From the NCBI RefSeq assembly GCF_002113885.1, contig NW_018480059.1, forward strand, positions 302,295 to 366,294: a stretch of DNA of 64,000 bases, given 5' to 3'. Below are positions 11,401 to 52,700 of this stretch, in pieces. Source of the DNA: Mizuhopecten yessoensis (taxonomy: Eukaryota). Below the pieces are notes generated by a model. That model was not told where the DNA came from. It saw nothing but the letters and a program-made list of their open reading frames with translations, and ran no database searches. The translations under genes were made by a program, and so were the position numbers. Position 1 is the first letter of the stretch, and every line of letters starts with the position of its first letter.

Positions 11401-12238
11401 TCACACATCATAATTTAGATTAATAGACTCGGTATCCCGTGGACAAATGTGATTGACGCTTTAACTACTTCATCGTTTATGAGATTAGATTGTATAATGT
11501 ATTAGATGCACTCCTGTTTTTATCTTTACAACAAAGACGTATGTAGGGTGATGGCCTACCACACAACTAAGTATGCATAGCGTCTTTAAACAATTGCACA
11601 TCCAAATCCTGACAGTGCAATTTCGTTACTGCATTCATCAAAGAAGTGCTTCAAAAAACCAAGAAAATCAGCGACGGAGAATAACAGATGGCGTTCAGGG
11701 TAATTTGCGGTCACGGGACTGGTCTTTAGGGATATCTGTAATATTTGTTGTGTAGACAGGCTTTTTGTTCTCGATGACTGTATCAACGTCATACCACTCT
11801 ACAAAAACAAAATAGAAGTTTTATAAGATTTATTAACAAAGTTACAAATTAAAAAAATATATAAAAATACCTGGGTCGGCAAAATACAGGTTAGTACATT
11901 CTAAAAATAGATTCCTTCACCTGTGACTGTCTGCTGGATTGCATTGTGTAATGTGTGGTTTATTGAGTTGAAAACAAAAAAGACAACAAACTTTTTTCTT
12001 CTTTTTCCAAATGTAGTTTACAGCCGCACATCTCAGTCAGTAAATGCCATTTTTATGCTTCACCTGTATACCACTGTATATAACGTTATCATTTCAATGC
12101 ATCCTCGCAAGTCAGAGTGTTTAATGTAGTCAAACTCTGGGAATGTATCCTTGTTATTGGACAACAGAATATAAAACCCCTTTTTATAAACAGACGAAAA
12201 GGAACCAAAACCTACAGAATAATCATCATTACCAATGC

Positions 12239-13216
12239 TGAGGATACATTTAAATATGGAGGGACTAGCTCTTTTAACGTCATTTTATGTCATCTTAGAA
12301 ACCAGGCAAGTCAATTAAATACTGATCTTTTTAGAGACCATCTTACTAATAGCCCATCCTGTATATGTGGCAACCATGACGAAGATGTGGATCACTTCTT
12401 TCTATACTGCCCTAGGTATATAATACAAAGACAAATCCTATTAGATTCTCTGTCTCATTTGCAGCTTAACATTCAACTAAACCTACATTTATATCTTGAC
12501 TTAAACCTGATTGAACATTTAGTAAATAATATCAATTTACTAACTAGGGGAAGTAACCACCTTAGTCATGATCCTAATTCTGCTATTTGTGTCTGTGTTC
12601 AGAAATATATTGAGTCTACTAACAGATTTTGAAATAACTGTTAATTATAGTCCCAATGTGTATGTATACATGTCTACATTAATACTCCTTCAACACGGCT
12701 CCTGCTCTGGATTGTCAATGACTGGGTAAGCACACAGTGGTGGTGTGTATGGACATTTTAGTGCTGCCCAGTTATTATTGTTATCTGGAGTAGGTTCAAC
12801 TAATGATATTTAATATTTACTGTATTGAATGAAGGTTCCAGTTTTTGATATTAATATATGTTATAAAATTTATAAAATTTGATTATTTACAAATGAGTAT
12901 ACACACATGGCTTTCCATTTTGAAATAAGTTTTATATTTTAAAAAACCACCAAATGTATTTGTTTTATCTCAGTAATTCTATTTTTTTATTTTTTATTTT
13001 GCTTAGTTCAGAGATAGATAGGGACTATTAAGTATTAAGTATTAAGTACTATTTAATGTTCCAAGCCAGTGCTAATATGTTAATGTCTAAATTATAATTA
13101 TGTTATTGTTTGAAATGTATGTAACCCAAGGGAGAGGGCTTGTATAGGCATAGCCTGTTGCCCAATTCCCATTGAATCAATTGATTTAATAAAATATTTT
13201 GAAATGAATAAATGAA
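12239..13216 (+). mobile_element. 5'-truncated LINE (CR1/L2-like): ORF2 C-terminus plus 3' UTR
   Basis: SPSCICGNHDEDVDHFFLYCPRY Cys/His motif typical of the LINE ORF2 C-terminus; AATAAA and TGAAA-type tail at about 13188-13216; 11-bp direct repeat ATTACCAATGC at 12228-12238 and 13217-13227 (TSD). Confidence 0.75.
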
Positions 13217-14384
13217 ATTACCAATGCACTTGTTGGTTTCAGGCAGAAAAACTAACCAATCGTTTGGCTGATAGTTTCATTGGATTAAAGGAGTTCATTT
13301 GTAATCATATTTTGTTTGAAATATCACTAGGGCAAGGTGATCATTTCTTTAATTCACGAAGTTGGTGTGACCCCATACGGTTGCGGGGGAGGGGCCAAAA
13401 GAAATGTTGGTGTACAGCCGCACTTACTGAAAACTATCGAGATATCCCCTGGGGATTTAGTGCGTTCATAACACAAAAATGGCTGAGAGTGTTTATTGTT
13501 GTTTCAGGTTTCCATCTGACATTGGAATATAGAGGAGTAGTTTCATCCAACTTAACAGACAACAACAATAGTGACAGGATTACCTCTCCATGGCGATGTT
13601 ACTGCTATGAGACAGTCATTGTACCTTCTCTGGTCAAATCCAGTGGTATGGAAAATAGGAATACAACCTGCAACAAATTTAAATATTCATTATTCAAAAA
13701 TAACAAGGAATATCGTAAATTGTATTTATTTTTAGGAAACAAATCTCATCATTAACGGTTTATCTAAAGATCCTATCCTTTGACATCATAATCGTGTCTC
13801 AAGGATTTAGGTATTGCCGTTGATTTTCTTTGTAACTACGACTCTTTATAGAATGCAAAGAAAATAATTATCTTTTCAAATTTGGCAAATATCAACTTAA
13901 ATTTGAACCTCGCTAAAACCATAAAAGAGCCTGTGTAAATTTTGTGGGAAGCCTTACCAATCAGCCCAAATACAGTTATCATAAACGTACACATCATGTG
14001 ATGTGACAGCCTCCGTGCCTCCATTAAGGCCAACAACAGTTATCAATATAGGTTATTGAAACGTGTTACATATAGTTGCTGTAAAATAGGAAAGATTAAT
14101 TTTACTTGTGAAAATAAACTAAATCAGAATCTTCAATGTATTGTATTTTACTACAGATCACCGTTATGTTTGCTAACAGATTGATTCCAAATCAGTTCAT
14201 CATGATACACGGGAACTCTGAAGAGGCAATCTGGAAAAATACCCTCAACCCATTTATCGACTTTATCCATGATCTCGGCCTTTTCCTCAGCACAGATCAG
14301 GAGGAAATTTCACTGAGAGCATTTAGCGAAAGTTGTGTGGCTGTGAAGACCGACTCGTCCTATAAATCACATTAAATGTTGACT

Positions 14385-15279
14385 GTGAGCACAAACATGT
14401 CCTAAGAATTCGACTCAGTGTTAAATGTGACTCGTTCTATTCATTTTCCTTCAGTGTTAAATTTCTTTGTCAGTAAAGTGACTTCATATTTGACCTTTAT
14501 AGTCTCCGTGAATACAGGTCTGGAATATATAGTATCCTTCAGTGTTAAATACGAGTAAAGACCTATCTTTAAGTCACCTTAAATGTTAAATGTGAGTAAA
14601 TAATAGTGTATTAGTCTCCCTCAGTGTTAAATGTGAGTACAGACCTGTCTTATTGTATCCTTCAGTGTTAAATGTGAGTGCAGACCTGTCATATATCATC
14701 ATTTAGTGTTAAATGTGAGTACCGACCTGTCCTATATAACACCCTTTGGTGTTAAATGTGAATATAGATCTATTTTAGATAGTCTTATTCAGTTTATACT
14801 ATCAGTGCAGACAAACTCGTTCGGTATACTCTCATTCAAAGCTAAATGTGCGTACAGACTTGTCCTCATAGTGTCGTGTAATGATAACTGTGAGTACAGA
14901 CTTGCCCTCATAGTGTCGTGTAATGATAATTGTGAGTACAGACTTGTCCTCACAGTGTCGTGTAATGATAATTGTGAGTACAGGCTTGTCCTCACAGTGT
15001 CATGTAATGATAATTGTGAGTACAGACTTGCCCTCATAGTGTCGTGTAATGATAACTGTGAGTACAGACTTGTCCTCAAAGTGTCGTGTAATGATAACTG
15101 TGAGTACAGACTTGTCCTCAAAGTGTCGTGTACTGATAATTGTGAGTACAGACTTGTCCTCACAGTGTCGTGTACTGATAATTGTGAGTACAGGCTTGTC
15201 CTCACAGTGTCGTGTAATGATAACTGTGAGTACAGACCTGTTCTCATAGTGTCGTGTACTAATAATTGTGAGTACAGAC
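14385..15279 (+). repeat. 42-43-bp tandem array derived from the NEMP-A exon 3 end plus donor site
   Basis: Units end in AGTGTTAAAT|GTGAGT or AATGATAACT|GTGAGT; homogeneous 42-bp block at about 14850-15279. Confidence 0.85.
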
Positions 15280-15473
15280 TAAAACAATAAAAAGAATATG
15301 TTTTATTTTCAGATATTGCATTGTGGAATGTAGCATACTTAGTGGCAGGCATTGACATCTTTCTGAGAGCAAAGAGCTGGAGTCGGTAAGTGTGAATTAA
15401 AGTATATTTTAAGGCATGTTGGAAAGTAAAGCTGCCATGGTTTTGATTGTAAACATGTTCATGGTGTTTATTT

Positions 15474-16446
15474 AGACAGTATCTAACAGATCGAGTACTC
15501 ACATCAGCCTAATGGGAGAGCAGACAGTATCTAACAGATCTAGTACTCACATCAGCCTGATGGGAGATCAGACAAACAGATCGAGTACTGACATCAGCCT
15601 AATAGGAGGTCAGACAGTATCTAACAGATCAAGTCCTCACATCAGCCTAATGGGTTATCAGACAGTATCAAACAGATAGAGTACTCACATCAGCATAATG
15701 GGAGATCAGATAGGATCTGACAGATCAAATACGCACATCCGCCTAATGGGAGATCAGACTGTATCTAACAGATCAAGGACTCACATCAGCCTAATAGGAG
15801 ATCAGACAGTATCAAACAGATAGAGTACTCACATCAGCCCAATGGGATATCAGACAGTATCTAACAGATCTAGTACTCACATCAGCATAATGGGAGATCA
15901 GATAGTATCTGACATATCAAATACTCACATCAGCCCAATGGGATATCAGACAGTATCTAACAGATCAAGTACTCACATCAGCCTAATGGGAGATCAGACA
16001 GTATCTTACAGATCGAGTTCTCACATCAGGCTTATGGGAGATCAGATAGTATCTGACAGATCAAATACTCACATCAGCCTAATGGGATATCAGACAGTAT
16101 CAAACAGATTGAGTACTCACATCAGCCTAATAGGAGATCAGACAGTATCTAACAGATCAAGTACTCACATCAGCCTAATAGGAGATCAGACAGTATCTAA
16201 CAGATCAAGTACTCACATCCGCCTAATGGGAGATCAGACAGTATCTAACAGATTGAGTACGCACATCAGCCTAATGGGAGATCTGACAGTATCTTACAGA
16301 TCGAGTTCTCACATCAGCCTAATGGGAGATCAGATAGTATCTAACAGATCAAGTACTCACATCAGCCTAATGGGAGATCAGACAGTATCTAACAGATTGA
16401 GTACTCACATCAGCCTAATGGGAGATCTGACAGTATCTAACAGATA
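15474..16446. repeat. 48-bp minisatellite, about 20 copies
   Basis: Unit AGACAGTATCTAACAGATCGAGTACTCACATCAGCCTAATGGGAGATC; it gives the 16-aa repeat ORF 15842-16600. Confidence 0.9.
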
Positions 16447-16681
16447 CATAATGATTTCACCATCACTAAATGACGGTCATTGTTTACCTGTGTTACAGAA
16501 ACATATACCTACACTACAGTACAGGTGTAACCATCAGTGTAATGACCTCCATTGTTTACCTGTTACAGTAACAGATACCTACACTACAGTACAGGTGTAA
16601 CCATCAGTGTAATGACCTCCATTGTTTACCTGTTACAGTAACAGATACCTACACTACAGGTCAGGTGTGACCATCAGTGTA

Positions 16682-16816
16682 AGTTGATGCATTTTAAGGG
16701 TCCCAATTTGTCCCTTTCGTCCCTTTTCGTCCCTTTTCGTCCCTTTCGTCCCTTTTCGTCCGATTTCTGTCCCTTTCGCCCTTTTCGTCCCTTTCGTCCC
16801 TTTTCGTCCGATTTTC
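16682..16816 (+). repeat. Left terminal inverted repeat with (TTT[T]CGTCCC)n subrepeats
   Basis: Reverse complement of the right end; 9-10-bp internal repeats. Confidence 0.9.
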
Positions 16817-19600
16817 CAAAGATTAGTCAGGCGGTTCACCATGTAAATCTTTTGTTACTGCTATATGGGAAGAACACTCATTATTGTCTGATAAAATATC
16901 TGAACGTGTTTCTAGCAAGAACGAAAGCATGTCGTAACAAAACTCACTTTTGTCATTATTGCTTGCAAGGTTTTACCCGGAAAGACATATTAGATGGACA
17001 TATAGAATATTGCTCAAAACATGATCCCCAGCACGTAAAATTACCAAACGAAAAAGAGAATGATTTGGAATTCAAAGATTTCGATAAACAACTCAAAGTA
17101 CCATTCGTAATCTATGACGATTTTGAAGCCTTTGCTCAAAGAATGGATACATGCGAACCAAATCCTGCAAATTCAAGTACTACGGCAAACATCAAATTTG
17201 AACCGTGTGGGTTTGGGTATCAAGTCGTGTGCATAAACGAAAAGTATACAAAACCACCTGTTATTTATAGAGGCTCTAATGTATCAAGGACATTTTTAGA
17301 AAACCTTATAGAAGAGGAAAACATGATAAAAACGGTATTAAATCATGTAGAACCCATGATCATGACCGATGATGACAATGCTCATAATTGTCACATATGT
17401 AATAAAACGTTTGCCACAGAAGATTTCAAAGTAAGAGATCACTGTCATTTGACTGGGAAATTCAGAGGTGCAGCACACAATGCATGCAATATTAATTTCA
17501 AGTATCTGAAATTCGTTCCAGTCATCTATCACAATTTAAAAGGATTTGATGCTCACATACTCTGTGAAAGTCTTGGATTATTCAAAGATCATGATATTAA
17601 ATGCATTCCAAACAACATGGAAAAGTATATATCATTCAGTCTTGGGAATCTAAGATTCATCGATTCGTTTGCATTCATGTCGCAAAGTTTGGAAACACTC
17701 ACAGAAAATTTGGCAAAGGAGGAATCAAAATTCAAACATTTCACAAAGGAATGTTCTAAAGTGGATTTATTACTGAGAAAGGGAGTATATCCCTATGAAT
17801 ATGTAGATAGTCCCGACAAATTTTTGGAAAATCAACTCCCTTCACATGAAATTTGTTATAGTCAACTAAGTAAATCTCACCTTTTTACTACAAGATAACG
17901 AGCATGCACAGAAAGTGTGGAAAGAAATGAAAATTCAGAATCCAGGTCAGTATCATGACCTTTATCTGAAAACGGATGTCCTATTATTAGCTGACGTATT
18001 TGGAAATTTTAGAACCATATGTCACAATTACTATGAGCTAGATCCATGTCATTACTACACAAGTCCAGGATTAGCATGGAGTGCTGCACTGAAAATGACA
18101 GGTGTGCATTTAGAATTGTTAACAGATCCGGACATGTATCTGTTCTTTGAGCAGGGGGTGCGTGGTGGTGTTTCCATGATCTCTAATAAATATGCCGCAG
18201 CCAACAATCCCTACATCCCCGAAACTTATGATTCTTCCAGACCTCATTCATACATTATGTATGCAGATTGTAACAATTTGTATGGAAAAGCAATGTCCGA
18301 ACCGTTACCTGTTGGAGAGTTTAAGTGGATGGATGACGTGAATAACTCTGACGTCACAAATGTTCCAAAGAATGGAGATTTAGGTTATGTGTTAGAGGTA
18401 GATTTAGAATATTCTGAAGAATTACATGACTCTCATTCCGATTACCCCTTGGCTCCGGAACGTAAAAAAGTCGGAGAAGACGAACTTTCTACTTACAGCA
18501 AAGGCTTATGAAAGGTTAAATCCTAGTACAAAACATACAGGTACAAAATTACATGATCGAGTGGTCACCGAAAAACTGATACCAAACTTAGAGAACAAAA
18601 CCAAATACACAGTTCACTATAGAAGTTTACAATTGTATTTGGAATTAGGAATGAAACTAACAAAGATTCATAGAGTGTTAGAGTTCAGACAACATCCATG
18701 GTTGAGACCCTATATTCAATTTAATACTTCAAAGCGGACTAAATCTAAAAACGAATTTGAAAAAGATTTCTTCAAGTTGATGAACAATGCCGTTTTTGGA
18801 AAGACGATGGAAAACGTGAGAAATAGAGTAGATATCAAGCTTGCACATACGGAGAAAAAGCTGACGAAATACTGTGCAAAACCTCATTTCAGACATTTAA
18901 GATTTTCAACGAAGATCTGACAGGTGTTGAGAATGCAAAGATAAAACTATTTTTAAACAAACCCGTTTATGGTGGACAGGCCATTCTCGATCTTTCAAAG
19001 TGTGTCATGTATGAATTTTATTACAAATACCTCAAACCTAAATATGGAGACGAGATGAAACTTTTGTTTACCGATACGGATAGCTTTTGCTATGAAATTC
19101 AAACACAGGACATCTATGCCGATATGTTGAGAGATAAACAGTATTTTGATTTTTCCAATTATCCCCCAAGCCATTTTTGCTATAGCACCACAAACAAGAA
19201 AGTACCGGGATATTTTAAAGATGAGACTAGCGGTAGACCCGTTAAAGAATTTGTCGGTCTGCGTGCCAAAATGTATAGTTTTAGTTATGCCAAGTCGGAG
19301 AGGTCAGTCGTGGGAGATTTTACCATTGTGACTAACACAATCTGTGAGAAACAAGTAGCGAAAGGTATTGCGAGAGCGACCATTAAGCGTGACTTGAGTC
19401 ACGAGATGTATAAAGAGTGCTTACTTGAAGAGAGAAATAGAATGTGTGAGATGAGCTCGATTAGGTCTGAAGGTCATAAATTACATGTATACACCATCAA
19501 CAAGTCTGGTCTCTCCGCCTTTGATGATAAACGCTATGTTTTGTCAAATGGTTGTGACACGCTTGCATATGGTGATTATAGAATCCCGTATTGTACATAG
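16684..19600 (+). pseudogene. Protein-primed family B DNA polymerase (pPolB), N-terminally truncated, three frameshifts
   Basis: ExoI VIYDDFE, ExoII HNLKGFD, RFIDSF, RKGVYPYEY, ExoIII YLKTDVLLL, RGG, motif A YADCNNLYG, motif [11 protein letters not shown], motif C FTDTDSF, KMY. EndoVII-like Zn insert CHIC...RDHCHLTGKFRGAAHNACN. Frameshifts near 17888, 18508 and 18897. Confidence 0.93.
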
Positions 19601-19682
19601 TTCATTCGCTTCTATTGTACATAAATCATGCGTTTCTATTGTATTTAATAATAACTCATTGTGTTCCTTTTTATGTATATTG

Positions 19683-19728
19683 AATAAAAACTGACAAAGG
19701 ATTGCATTGTATGTATTTATTTTTTATT
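19683..19728. terminator. Convergent polyadenylation signals between pPolB and the protease
   Basis: AATAAA on + at 19683-19688 and AATAAA on - at 19716-19721 and 19723-19728, in the AT-rich gap between convergent stop codons. Confidence 0.5.
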
Positions 19729-19805
19729 TACATTTGATACAAACATGAAAAATATTTGAGCTATGCATAAAGGTACAACAGGCTGTTAAAAAACAGCAGC
19801 ACCGC

Positions 19806-20282
19806 TTACAATTCAGCACAACATGTCTGATTAGAATGTCTGCTGTAAGACCAGCACGGAAAAGTTTTCGAAATGTATTCATATACATAATTGTCATTTT
19901 CTTCTAAGTTATTTCCGAATGGTTTGGTGATGGATTTCATGGGAATACCTCTACAACGATTCAACAGGTAATACAAACAATATTGCCCACACACTCTCGA
20001 TGTATTACTCTGCAATCGTCTATCGTTGTACGTACTTGCTTCAAAGGGGAAAACATCGGGTGGGTGTCCATAACTATCAAAAAATTCCTTCTTATCCTTA
20101 GATGCACAATAAAACGCTAACCAATGTCTTCCTGAGCTATCACTTTTGTCTGTATTGACGATATAACCAGCTGGAAATGTTTTTATTTCGCGCGGTACCT
20201 CGTCACGTGCATAAACTCCGATGACTGTTTGTCTCATAGCAGGATCACAGTCTATGATGCAACGTAACTGTGAAGTATTCAT
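19806..20282 (-). CDS. Adenain-like maturation cysteine protease (Polinton PRO), intact ORF
   Basis: NTD...GRHWLA (His), EFFDSYG (Asp), LQ (oxyanion Gln), VCGQYC (Cys). Confidence 0.9.
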   Translation of the reverse strand: MNTSQLRCIIDCDPAMRQTVIGVYARDEVPREIKTFPAGYIVNTDKSDSSGRHWLAFYCASKDKKEFFDSYGHPPDVFPFEASTYNDRRLQSNTSRVCGQYCLYYLLNRCRGIPMKSITKPFGNNLEENDNYVYEYISKTFPCWSYSRHSNQTCCAEL

Positions 20283-21588
20283 GATAACACAATGTCCCTC
20301 GCAGCGTTGATTTCGAAGTAACCAGGATATTCACAATAAATGATACTGCTGAGGTTAGTGCCGTTCCAAAGATTACCTCTAGCCTCACGTTTCCCTGTTT
20401 AAGCAAGGTAAGGTATTGATTGGTTTGGAAGCTAGGTTCCAACTCAAAGGTATAGAACGCGTATCCTTTTGCAATTTCGTCCCTCTCTATGTCGGAGCCA
20501 GAATCATTTTGCCATTTCCCCGGCGATTGTAACATGTTCCTTAGAACGGGAATGATGGTCTGACCGCCAGTACTGCCATACTTGAGTTTTAAGGGGTTTC
20601 CTCCGACTGGTATTCCATCCACATAGAGTCCGATTGATGTGACGTCGTAGGGCTGGAAAAACCACGGGTTCTGTTCATAGTCACCGGTGGTTCTTGTGGC
20701 GTTCACAAATCAGACTACCACGAGGTTTGGTCTCAGGCCTTGGAAGATATTATCATAGGTGAAATTTGTTGACCCCACAGGAATCTGTTTGACCATGGTC
20801 TGAGTAAACGGATATTTTGCATTAGTCACCTCGAGAGCCTGGCTTTGTGCATAGATGACTGCTGGGTTGACCTTGACTTTACTCACACGCAGTCGAATGT
20901 CTTCTAATGATACATTATAATCGACAGATGCGGTCCCGGAAAGGAGACAAAAACTTGGTTTGGATCTATAGAGTATCACGTTGACGTTAACCTGATTCAA
21001 TAAGTACCTATCCATCTTAAACAAATCGTGATAGAGAGGCCCGACCATATCTACCACCTTCCCACCTTCGAACATTTGAGCTCTTATCAAGAGCGCATTG
21101 TTCGAACCGGTCCTTGGGCTATGTTCGTCCATATCTCCCTCGTCGTCCTTTTCCCATAGTTGGGTAGTCAACTGGGTCGCCTTTGCTTCCTTAGAATTTT
21201 TCAATAAAGCTTGTATATAGGCCTTAAATGGATAATGGCTCGTTGTAGAAACGACAGCCTTCCCCTGTAGAGTAAAGTCCACTTGTGAAAATAACGAAGG
21301 TAAAAACAAATTGATGGGTCCCACGTTCTTATCTAAAGCGATGGCGCTTCCATCCCCTTTCGTTATTTTTACCTTTGCATAGATAAGGCTGCTGTGTAAA
21401 TCAAGCAATTCCAATCCGTTCTGTCCGGAAACGACGAATTAAACGACAGAGTCATTCGTTATCTGAGATATCGGTAACACGTCCTGATAGTAAATATTTT
21501 CTACGGCTGTCTGTGTCGGTGGACGGTCGAATACGGCTAATTCTGACGGTTGTGCTTCTCTGAAGAAATCTTTGTTTAACGCAGCCAT
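20279..21588 (-). pseudogene. Polinton major capsid protein (double jelly-roll, PY-like), about 436 codons, disrupted
   Basis: MAALNKDFFREAQPSELAVFDRPPTQTAV..., LFSQVD, YPFKAY, DRYLLNQV, GDYEQNPWFFQ, C-terminal EYPGYFEINAARDIVLS*. In-frame stops at 21439-21441 and 20710-20712; frameshift near 20333. The stop overlaps the protease start (ATGA). Confidence 0.85.
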
Positions 21589-22031
21589 TGTGATATCAGA
21601 CTTTTATTGGAGGTCCTTTTGTTCTTTTTCGTTGCTGTTCTTTTCACCTTGCTCGCTTTTCTTTTCGTCGCTTTTCGTTTACTCGCTTTTCGTTTTGGTT
21701 GCTTCTTCTACCGTGGAGTATGCACATGTCGACGTTTCCCAGCAGACTGACGACGAAGTGGAGTTCGTTTCCTTTTAATCTCAGACTTCACTTGTTCTAC
21801 GACTTGCTGAGCTGGTGAGACCATATTTACGTTCACCTCTCGTGAAGGTAAGGATTTCCCTCCCTCTTTATCGTTTTTGTCGATTGGAATCATGAATTCG
21901 TTCGAATTCTGTGTCAATCCTCCGCCAAATTGTTTCGCGTTTCGTTTTGTATTTTCTGTATAAGCGTTTTCTTTTCCTCGTGCCACGTCTTGATAATATT
22001 TCATCCATTTCCCCACGTTTGGAACGTACAT
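21576..22031 (-). pseudogene. Small basic core/DNA-condensing-like protein with a QFGGG putative protease site
   Basis: MYVPNVGKWMKYY...AKQFGGGL...VSPAQQVVEQVKSEIKRKR...; one internal TAG (21708-21710), then KKQPKRKASKRKATKRKASKVKRTATKKNKR; directly upstream of MCP. Confidence 0.6.
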
Positions 22032-22039
22032 CTTTGAAA

Positions 22040-22590
22040 CGTTCATGACTCTTTCGGCATATCCAGCTTTGATGGTGCTAGAAGAAGAGCTGAAGTGATG
22101 TATATTGTTATCCTTTGTCCATTCTTTTATCCATCTATTATAAAATTCAGATCCCGCGTCTGTTCTCAGGCGCTTGCAGAGCTGTCCCTTTACTGTGATT
22201 TTTTTTAATGCTTTTAGTACTTCTTTCCCCTGTTTGGCTTCGAGAGGTTCCACCCTTAAGAACCTACTGAATACATCAATGACTATGAGTAAAAAATCTA
22301 ATACCATCGTTATATTTAGAGATGTTTGAAACGTCAGCTAAATCTGCATCGTATTGTTCATAAGGGCCCGATACTTCGACTCTCGCTCTCTTGAATGAAC
22401 GCTTGACAGGTTTCTGTAGACTGTAATCGTCTAGACTCTGAATATACCTTCTAATCTTATGTAAACCAGGTTTTTTGAAACCTTTCGTTTTTAATACTTG
22501 GTGCACCTTTCCAGGGCTGAGAAATGCACCTCCATTCTTCAAATCGTAATAGACTCCGTCTACAAGTCGTTTCTCCTCCTCAGTCAACAT
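22040..22590 (-). pseudogene. Retroviral-like (RVE) integrase, frameshifted and C-terminally truncated
   Basis: VYYDLKNGGAFLSP..., QYDADLAD (D1), LIVIDVFSRF, RTDAGSEF (D2), KAGYAERV (E). Frameshift in the T-run near 22293; homology ends just after the catalytic Glu. Confidence 0.9.
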
Positions 22591-22649
22591 ATTCAATAAT
22601 AATGAGACAAAAATATCTACATGCAATCTTTTATTATCATTGATACATA

Positions 22650-22991
22650 TTACAATGTTTTATGAAACCAGTTTTCTAAGCGATTCATGGACACAACCAT
22701 TCTGTCGACTCTATCTTTCCAATTGTCTGTCTTCAGTTCTTTAATTCTCGATTCGGCATTGCACAATTGTGATATGAAAGCATTTCTAGCGCCTCTTTCT
22801 ATCTTTAATTGAACAGTTTCTCGAATAAAGTCACGAATCACTCTAATGTCATCCACATGAATAAATGCATCATTTATATCACATTGTCTCTCGCTTACTA
22901 TTTCTCGAACTTGGCTTGCATATGTCAGTTTCAATAAGTTGTGCATCCAGATGGATTCTAGGGAATTCTCATCAAGAAGAGCACCATTCAT
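22650..22991 (-). CDS. Unknown Polinton protein, apparent paralog of 23540-23968 without the Cys/His motif
   Basis: WMHNLLKLTYASQVREIVSE...INDAFIHVDDIRV aligns by eye with LLKNLLFLSYAYAVKSKITE...FDEALTNINHLEV. Confidence 0.5.
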   Translation of the reverse strand: MNGALLDENSLESIWMHNLLKLTYASQVREIVSERQCDINDAFIHVDDIRVIRDFIRETVQLKIERGARNAFISQLCNAESRIKELKTDNWKDRVDRMVVSMNRLENWFHKTL

Positions 22992-23265
22992 TTCGTCGAT
23001 ATTTCCTGTCAGAACTGGGTGGGTAAGGTAAAGCACAATGACGATCACGACACTCCGCAGAAAAGTTGTTATGCTTCCAATAGTTCAGTGTTTTCCCACA
23101 CTTGTAGCAGGTAACGTAATCACTGACACCTTCGTGAACAAATCCGTCACATGCTAGCTGATAAGGAGTCTGACGAAGTTTGTAAACCCACTGAGAAAAT
23201 GACAGCAGTCGATCGATACAGCTTGTCATGTGATGGTGGACTGGATATTCGGGTATAAGCTCCAT
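22972..23265 (-). CDS. BIR-domain (IAP-like) protein 2, degenerate C-terminal half
   Basis: PVHHHMTSCIDRLLSFSQW...PYQLACDGFVHEGVSDYVTCYKCGKTLNYW matches the BIR core; spacing of the final H/C ligands is atypical. Confidence 0.75.
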   Translation of the reverse strand: MELIPEYPVHHHMTSCIDRLLSFSQWVYKLRQTPYQLACDGFVHEGVSDYVTCYKCGKTLNYWKHNNFSAECRDRHCALPYPPSSDRKYRRNEWCSS

Positions 23266-23539
23266 CTATAAGTAGAATAAATAGTTACATTTCTATTATT
23301 CTTACCCATTGTGTTACGTGTTTGTCTACAATAATTCCGTCATTACACTAGTCGTTTCTCACCTCTGTCAGAGTAGTTTTCCCCATAGCACACAGATGAG
23401 GCAAATGTACCTATGACGTCACTCGTTTTCTTCAACGATTACGGAAAGCTGATCACCATCATCATCAATTTCTACATACTGATCACCATTCATAATGCAT
23501 TATACGTCAACTCTCTGTAAGTCAAATAAATAGATATGT

Positions 23540-23968
23540 CTAAACTTCACCGATTTTCTTTACGTAATCCTTTATCTTTTCGCTGTAGCTATGTTTCACG
23601 TAATTCTCATCCCTCAAACGTTCGTCTTGCATCAGACGTTGTAATGTGCCTGAAAGTATACACGACTGTATGGCAAATTCACGCCAGGTCTTTTCCACTT
23701 CTAGATGATTTATATTGGTCAATGCTTCGTCAAAATGTAAGTCTATAACAACAGCACTGGAATACATCAGACATTCATGTTCATGTTGACTACCTCGACG
23801 ATTCTTGCAGCCTAAACATACGAATAGTTCTGTTATTTTTGATTTTACAGCGTATGCATAAGAGAGAAACAACAGATTTTTCAGTAGTCTCCGATAGACT
23901 TTTTCTTCAATTTCTCCAATTAAAAAGTTTTGAAGTCTTTCGCCAAACAGATCTGTGTTTAACTCCAT
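23540..23968 (-). CDS. Unknown Polinton protein with a CLGC-x5-SQHEHEC putative Zn-binding motif
   Basis: Intact ORF of about 142 aa, co-oriented within the element; CxxC...HxC cluster. Confidence 0.6.
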   Translation of the reverse strand: MELNTDLFGERLQNFLIGEIEEKVYRRLLKNLLFLSYAYAVKSKITELFVCLGCKNRRGSQHEHECLMYSSAVVIDLHFDEALTNINHLEVEKTWREFAIQSCILSGTLQRLMQDERLRDENYVKHSYSEKIKDYVKKIGEV

Positions 23969-24051
23969 CACGAAAAAAACTCCTATATGTTCATTAAATA
24001 CGAATTACAAAGTAGAGAAGCCGTCGTAATACAAACTTACACCTCCTATGT

Positions 24052-24348
24052 TTATAAAACAAATAACATGTGTTGAAAAAGACAATCTTTCGACCACCTT
24101 ATGTGCTCTGTTTTGATATCGTCGAAATAGTTCCAATGTTTTAATGAAGCACCACACATAAAACACGTCACACAGTCTTCAATACCCGTATAGAAAAATC
24201 CGTTACTGGCAAGTTGATATGGAGAATGAGGATGATGTTTAGACCAATGTATAAACGTATCCACGCGATTGCAGCACTTACCTAACGATGGATGACGTGG
24301 TTGTATTACGTTTGTGATGTGTCGAACGCAATCAGTTTCACAGGACAT
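24052..24348 (-). CDS. Single-BIR-domain (IAP-like) protein 1, intact
   Basis: RVDTFIHW...PYQLASNGFFYTGIEDCVTCFMCGASLKHWNYFDDIKTEHIRWSKDC: full BIR consensus with C-x2-C-x16-H-x6-C. Confidence 0.9.
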   Translation of the reverse strand: MSCETDCVRHITNVIQPRHPSLGKCCNRVDTFIHWSKHHPHSPYQLASNGFFYTGIEDCVTCFMCGASLKHWNYFDDIKTEHIRWSKDCLFQHMLFVL

Positions 24349-24423
24349 TTCAACTTTCCATAAAGGAGCAAACGCACTGTAGGCTTTCGGATAAGAAAAG
24401 TAGTTTTTTAAACAAGGTTTCTG

Positions 24424-24588
24424 TCAAACATACTTTTGCCGGTCTTTGATATAAATCTTGATCTCACCTTTCACTTTCTTCACGATGAATTCTTGAGTCA
24501 ATCCTAAACGACAGACTATCTTTTTAGATGTGTCCTCACTGACAATAATGTCTTCCCTCTTGACGTGGTCGATGTGTGCCTGTGCCAT
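24424..24588 (-). CDS. Possible PC4-like ssDNA-binding protein fragment
   Basis: CRLGLTQEFIVKKVKGEIKIYIKD resembles the PC4 pattern LG-x-V-x-F-KG-x-I-x-IR; TATATAAA about 32 nt upstream of the ATG. Confidence 0.4.
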   Translation of the reverse strand: MAQAHIDHVKREDIIVSEDTSKKIVCRLGLTQEFIVKKVKGEIKIYIKDRQKYV

Positions 24589-24619
24589 GAGTCGACTGCT
24601 AGCTGGTAATAAATGCTGC

Positions 24620-24667
24620 TTTATATAGTACTTCTCACATGGCCGAAATTCATCCGTTTCGGATGAA
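24620..24667 (-). promoter_or_regulatory. Putative TATA box and 8-bp palindrome just inside the right TIR
   Basis: TATATAAA on - at 24620-24627; TTCATCCG-TTT-CGGATGAA hairpin at 24649-24667. Confidence 0.4.
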
Positions 24668-24687
24668 GGGTCGAAAGTCGTGGGGGG

Positions 24688-24908
24688 CAAAAGGGACGAA
24701 AGGGACGAAAAGGACGAAAAGGGACGAAAGGGACGAAAAGGGACGAAAAGGGACGAAAGATGGATGAGAGGGACGAAAAGGAACGAAAAGGGACGAAAGG
24801 GACGAAAATCGGACGAAAAGGGACGAAAGGGACGAAAGGGACGAAAAGGGACGAAAAGGGACGAAAGGGATGAAAGAGACGAATTGGGACCCTTAAAATT
24901 CATCTACT
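24688..24908 (-). repeat. Right terminal inverted repeat with (GGGACGAAA[A])n subrepeats
   Basis: Ends in GGGACCCTTAAAATTCATCTACT; its repeat tract is longer than the left one. Confidence 0.9.
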
Positions 24909-27900
24909 AGTGTAATGACGTCCATCGTTTACCTGTGTTACAGTAACAGATACCTACACTACAGTACAGGTGTAACCATCAGTGAAATGACGTCCATTGT
25001 TTACCTGTGTTTCAATAACAGATACAGGTGTAGCTATAGGCGTAATGGCTTCCATTGTTTTTCTCTTGATTTTTCTTAGAAGACAGTTTGAGCAGGTAAA
25101 TTCAAAGACCATAAAACAGAATTCTAGTATAATGTTATATAAATGGATAATTAGTAAATTTAACATTTTAAAATATTTATAAGTTTTTACCTAATAAAAT
25201 TAAACGATACTGTGGTACAGAGCCTTCAAACGGCCAGCTTTATCATGATTGCAGCTGCCATATCGTCGCAATTCCGGTTCTGGACCTATTTTATGAAACA
25301 GGTGTTTGACCCAATCACAAGCAAGCTGATCCAATATTGGCAATACATCCTTGGCTATGTCATCTTAGCGGGTCTCATAAGTTTCTGTGCCTGCTACAGA
25401 TACGGTCCAGTGACAGATACCCGCAGCCTTAACCTCATACAGTGGTTTATACAATTGGTTTCCCTCATTCTTATTTACCATGGGACGCAGTTACCTGAGT
25501 TATCTGTGATCATTATTGTTCACTTACTAGCACTCTATAATATTCCAAAAGGATGGTACATGAATAGATTCACATACTATCTCAGGTTAGTTGACGACTT
25601 TCCTACTCAAACATTTAACATATTCTGAGATTATGTAGATGTACTTTTTCAAATTATGTCGATGTTGTTTGTTGGTGTTGGCCATTGACAATTCCTGCAA
25701 ACAATTCTTGAAATCGGTGTTGCGGTTTTTGATGAGAAGTCAAAAATGCTACTAAAATAATGATATTAGTGGTAAGAGGACAGGGATGAGGAACCGACAC
25801 TTTATACTAATATTGATGTCTTTTCTTCCCCCGCACTGTAGCTTTCTTTTCTTATAATTATGACTTTTCCCCGTACTTTAGTTCCTTCACTTATCTTTTC
25901 AAACGATCATTTCAGACTCTTGTGAAAAAGAAGGTAGCAAAATAACTATGACATTGAAGACTTTATAGGTTTTTAGATTTGTAGAACTTCACTAATATTG
26001 AAATTTTATACAATTAAGGGTTTACGCACCTAGCCTTCTGTTTCAACCGTAGTTTACACCAATTTAGATTTCGACCAGTAAGCCCCTAAACGACGAGTCC
26101 GCGAAGGACGAGACAGGTGTGTGGCGTAGATCATTTATGCGTTACATACTGTATTTACTACTAATTTTAAATGTACAATATCATACTGCGGACTTTTTAA
26201 CATGAATAAACTTGACATCATTCATCACTGGATTCAGGTTTAAGTTTTTCACATCGAAGCGTAAGTTCCTGACGGAAGACGAGTACATCAAACAGACCAA
26301 CGAGGAAACCACAAAGGCACTAGAGGAGCTCCGCAGCTTCTGTCAGAGTCCTAAATGTGATACATGGAAGGTCGTCAGTCACCTGTCCACACCTTTAAAG
26401 TAAGAATCTGTACACATACACCTTTCCTGTCATTAATATTCTTTAATGTAAATTGTTAATCAGGACAAAAGTCGTCTTCATGAGATTGATTCCCATTTTA
26501 TATGTTCGTTCTCGGTAATATTTTATAGCACCATTGCTAGACGTAAGTCTGGAAATAATGCCAACCATTGAACCACTCATTAACCGACAACGGTGAAGAT
26601 TTTATTTGCCATTCATTCGCAACAAAACAAACTCCACACCCCTCCCCCTTTCTTACAGAAGTCATACAGAGTATTATTTTGCTGTCTTGTATTAGCCATG
26701 AAGTACGATCTGAATTCAATAGTGATAAAAACAAAATGGTTCTATGACTTACCAGGGCTCGTATTCATAAAACCGTTTTCATGCTTAAGCATAGATTTTG
26801 TGTTCAAGCTCAATTTCTTGTTCCAGATATAAATGGAGAATCGTTTCATGAATACGGGCCCTGGCACGAAGTACTTTTCGAAATTGCCCCGAAATTGTTT
26901 TTTTCTTATTATTTGGTTTGTTCTTCTTAAGCGGGACTTTATATTCAGGACAAATGCAAGTAAACTGTATGTGTGAACAATGCAAAACGACACACAGACA
27001 AACTAAAAGGTTACCAAGGGCTGTTCTGAAATAAGTCATAGCAATTACATCGAGACACTGTTAAAAGGACACAAATTAGTTGTTCTAAGCAACAAACGAA
27101 ACTTAAATTTTCATCTGACTAAGCTTGTAATTTTTCAGGCTGATTCGATGTCTACGACGGTCACCTTTACCTCTGATTGTTCAGTTTTTTGAGTCAATTC
27201 ATTATCACTAAAAATAAGATAAAAAACCAATTGCTTGTGTTTACAGGTTTGCCAAGTTTTTGGAGGTAGATTCCTGGCACGTTACAGATCATGAACTACG
27301 AGAGTATGATAGTGGGCCTGAACCAACACCTCCGGTCGATCCAGACTCGTCAGACGAGGATGAAACCTTAGTTTAACTGAATTCCTTTGCATTATAGATA
27401 TTTGTCACCTCACCTAAATCAAAGTGGATCTGATAGAATAATTTCATCAGACATGAACATCATGAAACCACACCATCATTCCTCGACTCAACTTGTCAGA
27501 AAAAGGATTTTGATATGTGATATCGTTGCTTCTTCTTCTGTTAACGTACAATCCTAGTTGAGAATCACGTACTGCGCTTTAACATATATTGACCTGAAAA
27601 TTACAATGACATTGAAACAAAAATCACGAGTTGTGACATTTTTTTTCATTTGTTTCATGTTCGCACACTGTTCCAGAACACTTGTTTTTAAAGAAGAATA
27701 TTTTGTATCAGATACATTGGCTGTCTACCAAACGCAGCATTATATCTTCAATTTTCGTATCCTTTGCTTAAACTTAAACCACCGTGGAATTCGTACACAT
27801 TAAGCATGGACTTGGGAAGTTCATAAGGGCAAAGTGATTCATAAAATACTCTTCGATGCCTATATAATTATATATAACAGCAAACTTTAGCTTGCTTATG

Positions 27901-46756: not shown

Positions 46757-49700
46757 ATGGCGCTCAAATTGATTTGCGGTCAGAGTTCAAGGGGCTCTCG
46801 TCCTGGGATGTCTGTAATGTTCGTAGTGTGGACGGGATTTTTGTTCTTGATTACTGTATCAGAATCAGACCAATATACAGAAGAGAAATGTAAGATTGAA
46901 TTGGATGAAACAGTAGGAAACTATATAACGCAGGCCTATCGTATAGTAACCACAGACCTACGTACTTTACTAAAGCTAGCGATAAGCAGGAACCAAATAA
47001 CTACGAAGCGATCACATTTACCAGTTACTCTGGGTAAACTTTCTAGATAAGTTTTTTATTGAAGATCGGATAACTTTTTTAAAGTGAATTAACGTTCGGT
47101 TATGAATGATGTATAAAATCATCTAATGATGTATATATACAATCAAATGAAAAGCACTAATGTTACTTGGCACAGATTCATGACAGTTAATCTGTATCTA
47201 CGGTGTAGGTTCCGGTTTTTGTACAACGGTAGAGAGAGAGCAGTTCATTTAGATTATTGGTGCGTTATAGCACTCTTAAAAGCCTCCCAGGTAGGGGTAC
47301 ATATTATATATATGGGGCAAAGAAGTAATTCCAACAGTGTGGACAAGTTTAGGTTGTCAAATTTTCGGAGCAATCCGCTCCTTTTTCAAGACACATTGAA
47401 ACAGAACAGTTACATTTACATCATATTACAAGAAGATAGAACTGATAAAGACATATATATATATATATACTAAGTCCTCCTCCATGGATATGACTGTACG
47501 TCATGTTTGAAAATGTGCTTTAATGACAGAAAACAGGGCAAGGATTGGGAATACTGTTATGCTAGTGATTATGTATCCAATTTTCAGCAAGCGCTGTACC
47601 CCATAAAAAAATAAAATAGGAATCAGTTAATTATTTTGGGCTAATTGACATAAGGACCCTACTTCCATTGGGCTGGTGTTGACTCTCCTCCCCTTGATAT
47701 GATTATGTAGAAGAACTGACGCTCGCCAAAAATGTAAAATTATTTGGGAAAAGATTATAGTGTTCGAGCATTCTGCTGATGTCGAGCAAGTCAAACCACT
47801 AAGGGATCATCTTTGATCATTATACCTCCCAGCATCAGAAGGTGCACTATGACTTCTCCAATCTCCATGATGACAAAATTTAATAGACTCCCTGAAGTAG
47901 TTACTATGGCCACATAACCTCATCAACCTGACCTCCCAAATAATGTACAACTTTGAGACGACCAATATACCTGGCGTCTGAAACCTTATGATATACTTTT
48001 CCTAGAGATGGACCCAACATTTTAAAAACTTGAGAATAATACCCCTGAATGGTTATAATTAACCCAAATGAAAAACAAGATAAACAAACTCTATCAAAGA
48101 TCATACATCATCTATTCAAAGACCTTATCTACTATAGAAATTACTTCTAAAGGCATACAAAAAACATTGCAAGGACTATCTATAACAATATATTTTTACA
48201 CAGAAAGCAGTCGAAAACCAATACTTGGACATATGATAAACACAAAAGGATATAAGTCATATTGGGGTTCCATCACTAAAACATCCTGTGAATTCCAGCT
48301 TATCTAGTTTGTTTATTACATCTCAATAGCTTTTGATGCTGTAAGCAAACAGATCAACTGACAATGGATTTTAAAATTAGCAAGGCACTTAACAAGGTAT
48401 TAGTCACCCTCTTTTAATTTACAAACTAATAAAAAAAACTCCAATATTTTAGGAAAAGAAACTAATGGATAAAGTGTTTCTTCACATTGTGAACACAAAC
48501 TTTCATGCAAGGGTCAACTATTACAGCATGTGTGGTCCCGACAATGATTATGAATGATGAATGTTGACAAATTAAATTTTACCCATCACCAATACTGTAG
48601 ACTAGAGTGTTTACTGTTACTGTTGTTTCAGGTTTCCATCTGACATTGGGATATAGAGAAGTAGTTTCATCCAACTTAACAGACAACAACAATAGTGACA
48701 GAGTTACCTCTCCATGGCGATGTTACTGCTATGAGGGACAAAGACAGTCATTGTACCTTCTCTGGTCAAATCCAGTGGTATGTAAAAAAGGAGTTAACAT
48801 CCACAGTTACCTGTCCTTCAGTCAGTATTCTATTGGTCATTCCTGGGTTTTCAGTAACGTGTGGTTTCTCTGAGTACTCATGATCTTCTCTCATATTAAG
48901 ACCCCCTGCATGATACCACTTGGGCCAACAAGAGTGAATGATATAAATTGAAAAAAAGTTGATCCACAATTGTTGTAAAATAAATAAAGTTCAATATTTT
49001 TGATATATAAGCAGTACACACAACCTGTGCAGCTGTACATGTAGTTATATCTATTTGACAGCTCAGATGTTGAGGCAAAACTCTGTACTGTATAATGTTG
49101 ATTTAACCAACTTTGTCAAAATAATATCTTTATCACTGTAAATATAGACCCATGGACTATTTATATACCATCTGCAAAATAGAGACTCAGACTATGTGAC
49201 CACTGTCATTAAGCAGCTATTTGTAAAACAGTATATCCAAATTCTAAATTCCCTTTACCTGTACAACAGTTGCAGAAGATAAGTTTGGTATCGGTAGGAC
49301 ATGCATGGAGTTAAAAAAACGTGTTTGACATCCATACATAAAGTATATTAATATTGAAAATGAGTTTCACAGATTGACAAAGTTAACTGATAAACATATT
49401 CATGTTTTAATAAGTTCATCTCATAGTGATCTCCAAAGTTGTTGTTTTATCAAATTGTGGAGCATTGTATAAAAATCACAGGGAATGATACTGAGGTTAT
49501 TACAGTGTTATTTATATCAGGAGATTTTTTGAGCTATTGTTTAGCATCTTACATCAAAACCACATGCATGCTTAATAGTGATGAAATTTGTTTCAAAAAT
49601 TGTTGTAAAATGTATAATTTTTCATAAATATGTGAAAGAAATCTGAATGTTCATTGTGTGTTACTACAGATCAAGCTTCAATTTGCTAACAACGTTGTAC

Positions 49701-52700
49701 CAGAACAGTTTGTCAAAATACATGCAGACTCTGAGGAAGAAACTTGGAAAAAGACAAACACCCAAAACCCATTTCTCAACTTTATCCAGCAACTCAATCT
49801 TTTCTTCAACAAGGATAGGGAGGACATATCTCTGACAGCTTTCAACAAGAGTTGTGTAGCTGTGCAGACTGACTCATCCTATACAGTCTCATTTAGTGTT
49901 AAATGTGAGTACATACCTATCCTAGATTATCTCCTTAAGTGTTACATGTGAGTACAGACCTATCCTAGATAATCTCATTCAGTGTTAAATGTGAGTACAG
50001 ACCTATAACCTACTAGCTAGATAATCTCCTTCAGTGTTTAATATGAGTGAAGACCTGTCCTAGATTTCTTACAGTGTTAAATATGTAAAATATGAGTATA
50101 GATCCGTCCTATATAATCTTCATCAGTGTTAAATGTGAGTAAAGACTTGTCCTTCAGAAACTACTTCAGTGTTAAATGTGAGTATAGATCCGTCCTATAT
50201 AATCTTCATCAGTGGCAAATGTGAGTAAAGACTTGTCCTTCAGAATCTACTTCAGTGTTAAATGTGAGTATAGATCTGTCCTATATAATCTTCATCAGTG
50301 TTAAATGTGAGTATAGATCCGTCCTATATAATCTACTTCAGTGTTAAATGTGAGTATAGACCTGTCCTTCAGAATCTACTTCAGTGTTAAATGTGAGTAT
50401 AGACCTGTCCTTTAGAGTCTCATTCAGTGTTAAAAGTGAGTATAAACCTGTCCTTTAGAGTCTCATTCAGTGTTAAAAGTGAGTATAAACCTGTCCTTAA
50501 GAGTCTCATTCAGTGATAAATATGAGTATAGACCTGTCCTTCAGAATCTACTTCAGTGTTAAAAGTGAGTATAGACCTGTCCTTTAGAGTCTCATTCAGT
50601 GATAAATGTGAGTATAGACATGTGCTTTAGAGTCTCATTCAGTGTTAAATGTGAGTATAGACCTGTCCTTAAGAGTCTCATTCAGTGTTAAATGTGAGTA
50701 TTGACCTGTCCTTTAGAGTCTCATTCAGTGATAAATGTGAGGACTGAACTATCCAGTATAATCTCCTTCAGTGTTAAATGTGAGTATGTGTTACATTCTG
50801 AGTTGATGTATACTCCTAGTTAGACTTTGAATATATATGTGAGTGCGGGCCAAATTTATATATAGATGCATTGTCTCTTTCTGTTTGAGTACAGACCATT
50901 TCTATGCCTTCCCAAATTAACTACAGGGTCAAAAGGGCACTCATGTTTGACAGACATTTTGTAGTTATTTCACAAATGGTACACTCTTTCATGTCTTGTA
51001 GTATGCTTAATGTGAGTAAAGACTAAATTAATATTGCAGAAAATGTTTTTGTTTTCAGATGTTGAACTGTGGTACGTAGCATACCTAGCTGCAGGCATTG
51101 TCATCTTTCTGTCAGCAAAAAGCTGGAGCCAGTAAGTGTGAAAGCATAATTTAAGGATCTTTTGTTACTACTTCTCAAAATATGTATCAATAATTTTGAA
51201 ATTATTTGCATTCAGGAATAGCCATTATGTATAAAATCATGTGTGTAAGGGAACTTTCTTTTCATATGCACTTTTTAAAGGGTGAAGGATGGTATGATTA
51301 TGCCAGTGTTACAGTAACAGATACCTACACTACAGTACAGGTGTAACCATCAGTGTAATAACCTCCATTGTTTACCTGTTACAGTAACAGATACCTACAC
51401 TACAGTACAGGTGTAACCATCAGTGTAATAACCTCCATTGTTTACCTGTTACAGTAACAGATACCTACACTACAGTACAGGTGTAACCATCAGTGTAATA
51501 ACCTCCATTGTTTACCTGTTACAGTAACAGATACCTACACTACAGTACAGGTGTAACCATCAGTGTAATAACCTCCATTGTTTACCTGTTACAGTAACAG
51601 ATACCTACACTACAGTACAGGTGTAACCATCAGTGTAATAACCTCCATTGTTTACCTGTTACAGTAACAGATACCTACACTACAGTACAGGTGTAACCAT
51701 CAGTGTAATAACCTCCATTGTTTACCTGTTACAGTAACAGATACCTACACTACAGTACAGGTGTAACCATCAGTGTAATAACCTCCATTGTTTACCTGTT
51801 ACAGTAACAGATACCTACACTACAGTACAGGTGTAACCATCAGTGTAATAACCTCCATTGTTTACCTGTTACAGTAACAGATACCTACACTACAGTACAG
51901 GTGTAACCATCAGTGTAATAACATACATTGTTTACCTGTTACAGTAACAGATACCTACACTACAGTACAGGTGTAACCATCAGTGTAATAACCTCCATTG
52001 TTTACCTGTTACAGTAACAGATACCTACACTACAGTACAGGTGTAACCATCAGTGTAATAACCTCCATTGTTTACCTGTTACAGTAACAGATACCTACAC
52101 TACAGTACAGGTGTAACCATCAGTGTAATAACCTCCATTGTTTACCTGTTACAGTAACAGATACCTACACTACAGTACAGGTGTAACCATCAGTGTAATA
52201 ACCTCCATTGTTTACCTGTTACAGTAACAGATACCTACACTACAGTACAGGTGTAACCATCAGTGTAATAACCTCCATTGTTTACCTGTTACAGTAACAG
52301 ATACCTACACTACAGTACAGGTGTAACCATCAGTGTAATAACCTCCATTGTTTACCTGTTACAGTAACAGATACCTACACTACAGTACAGGTGTAACCAT
52401 CAGTGTAATAACCTCCATTGTTTACCTGTTACAGTAACAGATACCTACACTACAGTACAGGTGTAACCATCAGTGTAATAACCTCCATTGTTTACCTGTT
52501 ACAGTAACAGATACCTACACTACAGTACAGGTGTAACCATCAGTGTAATAACCTCCATTGTTTACCTGTTACAGTAACAGATACCTACACTACAGTACAG
52601 GTGTAACCATCAGTGTAATAACCTCCATTGTTTACCTGTTACAGTAACAGATACCTACACTACAGTACAGGTGTAACCATCAGTGTAATAACCTCCATTG

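Follow-up and report, generated by a model that had tools for sequence, protein, structure and literature searches.

The window, by which we mean the whole stretch of 64,000 nucleotides of scallop DNA that was analysed, contains an integrated element of 8,227 bp at positions 16682-24908. The element begins with AG, ends with CT, and splits a minisatellite of the host. We assigned the following features (window positions, strand):

11686..27519, + strand: pseudogenised duplicate of NEMP/TMEM194, which carries the insertion
16469..25022, + strand: host 70-bp minisatellite, split by the element
16676..16681, no strand: left target-site duplication, 6 bp, AGTGTA
16682..16816, + strand: left terminal inverted repeat, 135 bp, starting with AG followed by 9-10-bp tandem units, shortened by deletion
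16817..19600, + strand: remnant of a protein-primed DNA polymerase B (Pfam PF03175 and PF02945; tblastn against sibling ORFs)
19806..20282, - strand: adenain-type maturation protease, open frame (Pfam PF00770, PDB matches, sibling identity)
20279..21588, - strand: double-jelly-roll major capsid gene (65% to sibling ORF L023)
21575..22046, - strand: Lys/Arg-rich ORF upstream of the capsid gene, one in-frame stop (same place in outside relatives)
22049..22590, - strand: integrase remnant, one frameshift, C-terminal half gone (Pfam rve)
22650..22991, - strand: unnamed conserved ORF, open frame
22972..23265, - strand: BIR2, a divergent BIR gene (Pfam BIR, E 2.5e-9)
23540..23971, - strand: 143-aa ORF for an unnamed all-helical protein with a CxxC...HxC motif (29 relatives)
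24052..24348, - strand: BIR1, an intronless single-BIR (IAP-type) gene of 98 aa, open frame (Pfam BIR, E 4.4e-19)
24424..24588, - strand: 54-aa ORF lying 3' of a TATA-like box at 24620-24627 (no Pfam match)
24561..24908, - strand: right terminal inverted repeat, its length of about 350 bp being judged from the other end of sibling C76589, which it matches
24909..24914, no strand: right target-site duplication, 6 bp, AGTGTA
46757..56348, + strand: NEMP paralogue free of the lesions of the hosting copy, its matching minisatellite uninterrupted

A preliminary description of this DNA had named the element a Polinton/Maverick, and we retain that identity on the evidence of its ends, its target duplication, its Pfam matches and the fold of a sibling capsid. 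Polinton termini follow an AG...CT rule. The terminal inverted repeats, described earlier as starting with AG and ending with CT, agree at 26 of their 29 outermost bases. The perfect 6-bp duplication that had been claimed is present on both sides; agreement at 6/6 positions has a probability of about 4e-4 by chance, given the base composition. AGTGTA occurs once among the 29 units of the same 70-bp repeat in the intact NEMP paralogue, and this single occurrence matches the expected empty site.

The location within a tandem repeat raises the concern that sibling copies were collapsed at the minisatellite into an assembly chimera. Among the matches listed for 16452-26500 in public contigs (four runs from four studies), none bridges a junction, in line with such a chimera, and none contains an empty-site joint across the element; the loose ends at 16817, 22045 and 22048 prove no more than the existence of undeleted siblings. 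The identity of the element to its siblings is also mosaic (see below), which fits the same explanation. However, the left junction recurs with the same end variants on another contig of this assembly, 460 bp long and with a different repeat count. The target duplication is perfect and in register with the repeat unit, the internal deletion has clean microhomology, and the element has no N gaps. We consider a chimera highly improbable.

The insertion had been placed in an intron of a host gene. It is indeed intronic, but the host is a pseudogenised tandem duplicate of NEMP rather than a functional gene. The hosting copy has an 8-bp deletion near 13610 as well as a 14-bp deletion and an altered splice acceptor near 25010-25022; the two frameshifting deletions and the changed acceptor rule out insertion into a working gene. 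The unit of the 70-bp minisatellite comprises a splice acceptor and the first codons of a NEMP exon. The insertion was likely neutral, since it is intronic and lies in a pseudogene. We note that the NEMP duplicates are arranged in tandem, with the working copy about 30 kb from the hosting pseudogene.

We ran Pfam on 20 frames. The core genes named in the preliminary description are present, and their arrangement as two convergent blocks holds, with the polymerase on the + strand and every other gene on the - strand; that gene set had left out the two BIR genes and the two unnamed ORFs. The polymerase remnant matches DNA_pol_B_2 (PF03175, E 2.8e-8) and includes an endonuclease VII/HNH-type zinc module (PF02945). 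It is a pPolB, as claimed, though truncated and frameshifted: about 490 N-terminal residues are gone and three frameshifts lie near 17890, 18500 and 18870. In 730 aa of a sibling polymerase Pfam identified C2H2 fingers, at the N-terminus, and the endonuclease VII module; the sibling polymerase had no solved-structure relative by sequence. The integrase matches rve (PF00665, E 1.7e-8), in keeping with its earlier assignment, and in a sibling it has an additional chromodomain-like C-terminus. Evidence for the adenain protease is weak yet consistent: Peptidase_C5 (PF00770) scored E 0.003, under the cut-off, the top two PDB matches (both weak) were ASFV S273R and adenain, and the frame is 95% identical to that of a sibling.

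The capsid gene of the window has two in-frame stops and one frameshift near its 3' end and gave no Pfam match. Because it is broken, we folded an open sibling ORF instead (65% identical to the window capsid; 110 homologues). In Foldseek the resulting model (pLDDT 88.9) came closest to double-jelly-roll capsid proteins from Sputnik, PBCV-1 and mavirus (E about 1e-14, TM about 0.6). The claimed major capsid protein is thus predicted to be a double jelly roll, as judged on a natural sibling ORF rather than on the broken window gene. A homologue search with the capsid returned 394 proteins past E 1e-30, the nearest named ones being scallop proteins annotated as 'uncharacterized protein F54H12.2-like'; the nearest named NEMP proteins are also from scallop, in line with the mollusc host proposed earlier. 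A capsid gene of this genome shows zero branch length to a record named from Mizuhopecten yessoensis, which makes the host a pectinid scallop and likely this species. The position and composition of the Lys/Arg-rich ORF suggest a core protein. A packaging ATPase and the likely minor capsid gene are absent from this copy through deletion. Siblings encode a P-loop ATPase and, between the integrase and the core ORF, a 145-aa ORF without a Pfam match that is likely the minor capsid, going by position alone.

The element belongs to a large family in the scallop genome. We found at least 71 DNA matches (best 40 of 355 candidates) and at least 154 capsid matches (best 150 of 295 candidates); a scan of viral contigs for relatives in other hosts gave none among 74 candidates. 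A search for full-length siblings in the same genome, which the preliminary description had suggested, identified a copy that retains its two ends, is 16,202 bp long and is flanked by a target duplication matching at 5/6 positions (G000:C76321:2251-18452). It is 84-98% identical to the window copy by 500-bp windows and has the genes that the window copy lacks. Relative to this sibling, the first deletion has its junction at 16816, where the left repeat's tandem units now adjoin the middle of the polymerase; lost with it are about 4 kb of accessory DNA, the ATPase, a small ORF and about 490 aa of the polymerase. Another deletion, of about 1 kb, lies at 22045-22048 with 4 bp of microhomology and removes the C-terminal half of the integrase and the 145-aa ORF. 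The undeleted sibling, together with the stops and frameshifts of the window copy, bears out the earlier view of a deleted, decaying member of a larger family. At 8.2 kb the window copy falls outside the 13-25 kb of Polintons, while the 16.2-kb sibling falls inside; hence we file it as a defective derivative. The alignment confirms, at the level of sequence, a deletion derivative of the 16.2-kb sibling type, and the full-length sibling rules out a natively small 8-kb Polinton. At least one core gene was split or truncated in 17 of 17 mapped stretches of the family, a pattern that assembly errors can mimic and that qualifies the earlier suggestion that intact relatives may form virions.

We considered whether the 8.2-kb form is instead a non-autonomous subfamily, mobilised after its deletions by the enzymes of fuller copies rather than decaying in place. 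Its outermost termini are retained, and the genome contains small derivatives that keep their ends and a target duplication: an ends-only element of about 500 bp at C5528, with a target duplication of 5/6, and a palindromic BIR-only element of 5,715 bp at C76728, with a perfect 6-bp duplication. However, we found no second locus with either deletion junction, the junctions covered by the three close siblings show no deletion there, and the sole other left-end copy (C55688) shares the same flank. We therefore regard a mobilised 8.2-kb subfamily as unlikely, and the window copy as one that probably decayed in place.

In most relatives all genes lie on one strand, in the order BIR1, ORF, BIR2, ORF, integrase, minor capsid, basic ORF, capsid, protease, ATPase, small ORF, polymerase, and three outside loci (L073, L088 and L089) are likewise co-oriented. 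The ATPase-polymerase block is inverted in four copies (the window, C76321, C76589 and C2789). In a capsid tree of 33 rows these four form one clade (100/100) nested among co-oriented copies; the convergent layout is hence derived in this sublineage, and the nesting rules it out as the ancestral state of the family. The window polymerase is 94-97% like that of C76589 and 84-94% like that of C76321, whereas the right half is 92-98% like C76321, with dS of about 0.05 for four right-hand genes. This mosaic points to recombination within the sublineage.

By itself the element is an ordinary decayed Polinton, and what matters is its BIR cargo. BIR1 retains all four zinc ligands in an intact C-x2-C-x16-H-x6-C pattern, and its PDB matches were BIR domains of NAIP, DIAP1, XIAP and cIAP. 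A homologue search with BIR1 returned one unnamed 98-aa protein from one candidate, and an Atlas search returned BIR clusters alone. No BIR match was found at 64 outside loci from metagenome and genome collections, most of which end before the expected BIR place, most of the close ones just upstream of the integrase. The median dN/dS of BIR1 was 0.19 (255 pairs with dS 0.3-1.5; the pairs are not independent); in the same dS range the capsid gave 0.15 and the protease 0.26. BIR1 has therefore evolved under purifying selection, as has the capsid. Recent pairs are near neutral (dN/dS 0.66), which is expected of decay following insertion, so that the present copies may all be dead. The full zinc pattern was found in 18 of 30 copies, and several of the remaining ones are cut short.

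BIR2 has the standard C-terminal zinc-ligand spacing in none of 20 copies and is still constrained, with dN/dS of 0.29; it likely arose within the element as a duplicate of BIR1. Between subfamilies, the unnamed ORF at 22650..22991 is also under purifying selection (dN/dS 0.30). In the window, the 143-aa ORF stops six codons before its siblings do. The ORF gave no Atlas match, and its model (pLDDT 89.7) gave no viral fold match and no clear fold match; the best PDB Z was 5.1, a value that carries little meaning when the protein is helical.

By analogy with known IAPs, whose BIRs bind IAP-binding-motif proteins or caspase ends and so delay cell death, BIR1 is likely anti-apoptotic cargo. The BIR genes could alternatively be passengers, or be kept for a non-apoptotic role, such as a zinc-binding adaptor in signalling or replication. 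Neither gene encodes a RING domain, and BIR2 lacks the standard ligand spacing in 20/20 copies yet is constrained, both of which would fit such a role. A dN/dS of 0.19 across saturating divergence is not expected of a pure passenger, however, and in alignments with NAIP BIR2/3 BIR1 keeps residues that we take to be those of the peptide groove. On this evidence we find a passenger or non-apoptotic reading possible but doubtful, and favor an anti-apoptotic function.

BIR1 is spread through the genome inside elements. When we compared the best 57 of 150 listed BIR1 matches with 116 listed capsid places, 33 lay within 11 kb of a capsid. The 116 places, at 22 kb each, cover 0.26% of the genome (a hand estimate), so that chance accounts for less than one BIR-capsid neighbour pair. 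We inspected 20 of the other 24 matches and found Polinton genes adjoining 19. A further 18 stretches contained element genes or ends in 14 cases and none in 4. In total, among the best 150 of 392 PF00653 (BIR) candidates, at least 72 lie in Polintons or their derivatives; for the other 78 no element association was demonstrated. The arrangement varies: in another branch of the family (C4383 and C76432) a BIR gene lies in both terminal arms, and the palindromic element at C76728 carries a pair of BIR genes and lacks core genes.

We built a tree of 82 BIR domains (56 element-borne, 7 unassigned and 19 host-like; 66 columns, quick search, midpoint root). One branch (SH-aLRT 92) has on one side all 56 element-borne domains and 4 of the 7 unassigned ones, and excludes all 19 host-like domains. 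The nearest host group is a tandem array on C107 (90), and BIR2 nests inside BIR1. The tree gives weak support to a single group of element-borne BIRs apart from the BIRs of host IAPs.

Taken together, we conclude that the window element is very probably a broken 8.2-kb copy of a scallop Polinton of roughly 16 kb, inserted with a 6-bp duplication into a NEMP pseudogene, whose family carries a captured single-BIR gene likely serving the virus as a cell-death blocker. We propose the following history. An ancestral Polinton would have captured the BIR domain of a host IAP once. In one branch the divergent BIR2 would then have arisen by duplication of BIR1, and in another the BIR gene would have ended up in both terminal arms. 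The block of ATPase, small ORF and polymerase would have inverted in the sublineage of the window. The rve integrase would have inserted one copy into the minisatellite of a NEMP duplicate that was redundant, so that the insertion was probably neutral; this copy would later have lost about 8 kb at its left and 1 kb internally, and accumulated stops and frameshifts. As for function, the RING-less, zinc-bound BIR1 may sequester pro-apoptotic IAP-binding-motif proteins or caspase N-termini, which, by analogy with known IAPs, would keep the host cell alive while the element replicates.

These observations bear on the expansion of IAP genes in bivalves, a much-cited adaptation to stress and immune challenge. 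In the hard clam, the available text of Song et al. 2021 (PMC7831173) describes 42 of 49 clade-1 IAPs as intronless single-BIR genes, ascribed to a burst of retroposition, and reports DNA transposons enriched near IAP genes. Among 28 clade-1 rows of its supplementary file 9, 11 are single-exon genes of 408 nt, distributed over six chromosomes and with FPKM <1 in every sample. Judging by these published gene descriptions alone, the clade-1 genes resemble the scallop cargo in being single-exon, single-BIR and dispersed; they differ in that the accessible parts of Song et al. 2021 (PMC7831173) invoke retroposition and leave Polintons unmentioned. A 2026 IAP survey, in its available portion, gives transposition as a likely driver and names no element. 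'Maverick' is absent from the available text of these bivalve IAP papers (Song et al. 2021, Witkop et al. and the 2026 survey), as is 'Polinton' from the two in which it was searched for, and our literature search found nothing joining Polinton, IAP, apoptosis and bivalve. For the Yesso scallop, the accessible list of Witkop et al. contains a single intronless IAP gene; most of the scallop's element-borne BIRs would hence fall outside the annotated gene count.

Of the 150 best BIR matches in the scallop genome, about half (at least 72) are virus-borne, and a weak tree suggests that they share one origin. Some 'expanded' bivalve IAP genes may hence be viral cargo and not host genes, and Polinton cargo is an alternative to retroposition or unnamed DNA transposons. 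A broader version is tentative, and we lean somewhat against it: that Polintons and their palindromic non-autonomous derivatives carry, as cargo, a large part of the intronless BIR-only genes dispersed in bivalve genomes (e.g., the 42 in hard-clam clade 1), which would then not be host retrocopies. If it were true, integrating DNA viruses would be a main driver of how many IAP copies molluscs have, and IAP counts would need to separate host genes from viral ones. The flanks of intronless BIR-only genes offer a cheap, direct test.

Polintons are described in the available text of Jeong et al. 2023 (10.1101/2023.08.22.554363) as elements of 13-25 kb with terminal repeats of 100-1500 bp and target duplications of 5-8 bp, found in molluscs including Pecten. 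The 16.2-kb sibling falls within that size range (10.1101/2023.08.22.554363), and the family resembles Polintons/Mavericks in having pPolB, rve integrase, protease, ATPase, double-jelly-roll capsid, TIRs and target duplication. The window copy differs in its length of 8.2 kb and in lacking the ATPase, the likely minor capsid, the polymerase N-terminus and half of the integrase; its sublineage differs in the inverted ATPase-polymerase block and in carrying two BIR genes. BIR cargo as such is not new, since IAP homologues have been reported in adintoviruses (Starrett et al. 2021, PMC8502044, as far as its accessible text goes). The available main text of that paper has no mention of 'mollus' or 'oyster', and its supplementary maps may show a mollusc element with an IAP. 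By Pfam, the N-terminus of a sibling polymerase in our family has C2H2 fingers and no detected OTU domain, the domain looked for at this position in adintoviruses. Baculoviruses and ostreid herpesvirus also have virus-borne BIR proteins, whose presumed role is to block apoptosis of the host; two BIRs and a RING are usual in baculovirus IAPs. BIR1 is like these IAPs in being a virus-borne BIR, and unlike them in being a lone BIR on an integrating element.

We searched the scallop genome for Polinton capsids and scored 150 of 295 candidates. Among the capsid matches listed, six places (contigs C388, C3761, C4717, C5152, C5503 and C5543) had equal scores and an identical open capsid frame of 435 aa, with approximately 40% identity to the window Polinton family. 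These six places represent a separate Polinton family, probably one that spread recently. At C76613, C2920 and C2789, Polinton copies from differing subfamilies were nested or in tandem at a single locus.

Non-autonomous derivatives were also observed. An element of about 500 bp (L003; G000:C5528:200261-200764) consists of nothing but both terminal repeats of the window Polinton sublineage, and its target duplication matches at 5/6 positions; it is a MITE-like derivative of that sublineage. Three palindromic non-autonomous elements carry one BIR gene in each arm: C76728 (L144:2007-7721), with a perfect 6-bp target duplication; C123 (L142), whose 4.4-kb arms are 99.7% identical to each other; and C942 (L143).

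Two short ORFs adjoin terminal repeats:

Window 24424-24588 (- strand), short ORF
L031:1058-1264, short ORF at another locus

We take both to resemble PC4-like DNA-binding proteins; a Pfam search of the window ORF gave no match.

Polinton-like contigs (L087-L133) with capsid, integrase, protease, ATPase and polymerase were present in bacterial and archaeal MAGs, one of which holds >30 such loci. They are likely misbinned eukaryotic DNA.

The NEMP genes contain tandem repeats, including a 70-bp minisatellite (window 51300-53450 and 16469-25022) in which each unit joins a splice acceptor to the opening codons of a NEMP exon. In the intact gene, approximately 30 of these acceptor-bearing units stand upstream of the genuine exon, so the intron is rich in decoy acceptors. 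A second array lies in the pseudogene:

Window 15474-16445, 48-bp tandem array, about 20 copies, same pseudogenised NEMP intron as the Polinton insertion

This array yields a long open frame, in which nothing pointed to coding function.

The window polymerase contains an endonuclease VII/HNH-type module (window 17370-17500). For polymerases of the pPolB2 class, Jeong et al. 2023 (10.1101/2023.08.22.554363) place HNH in nematodes and oomycetes and not in molluscs.
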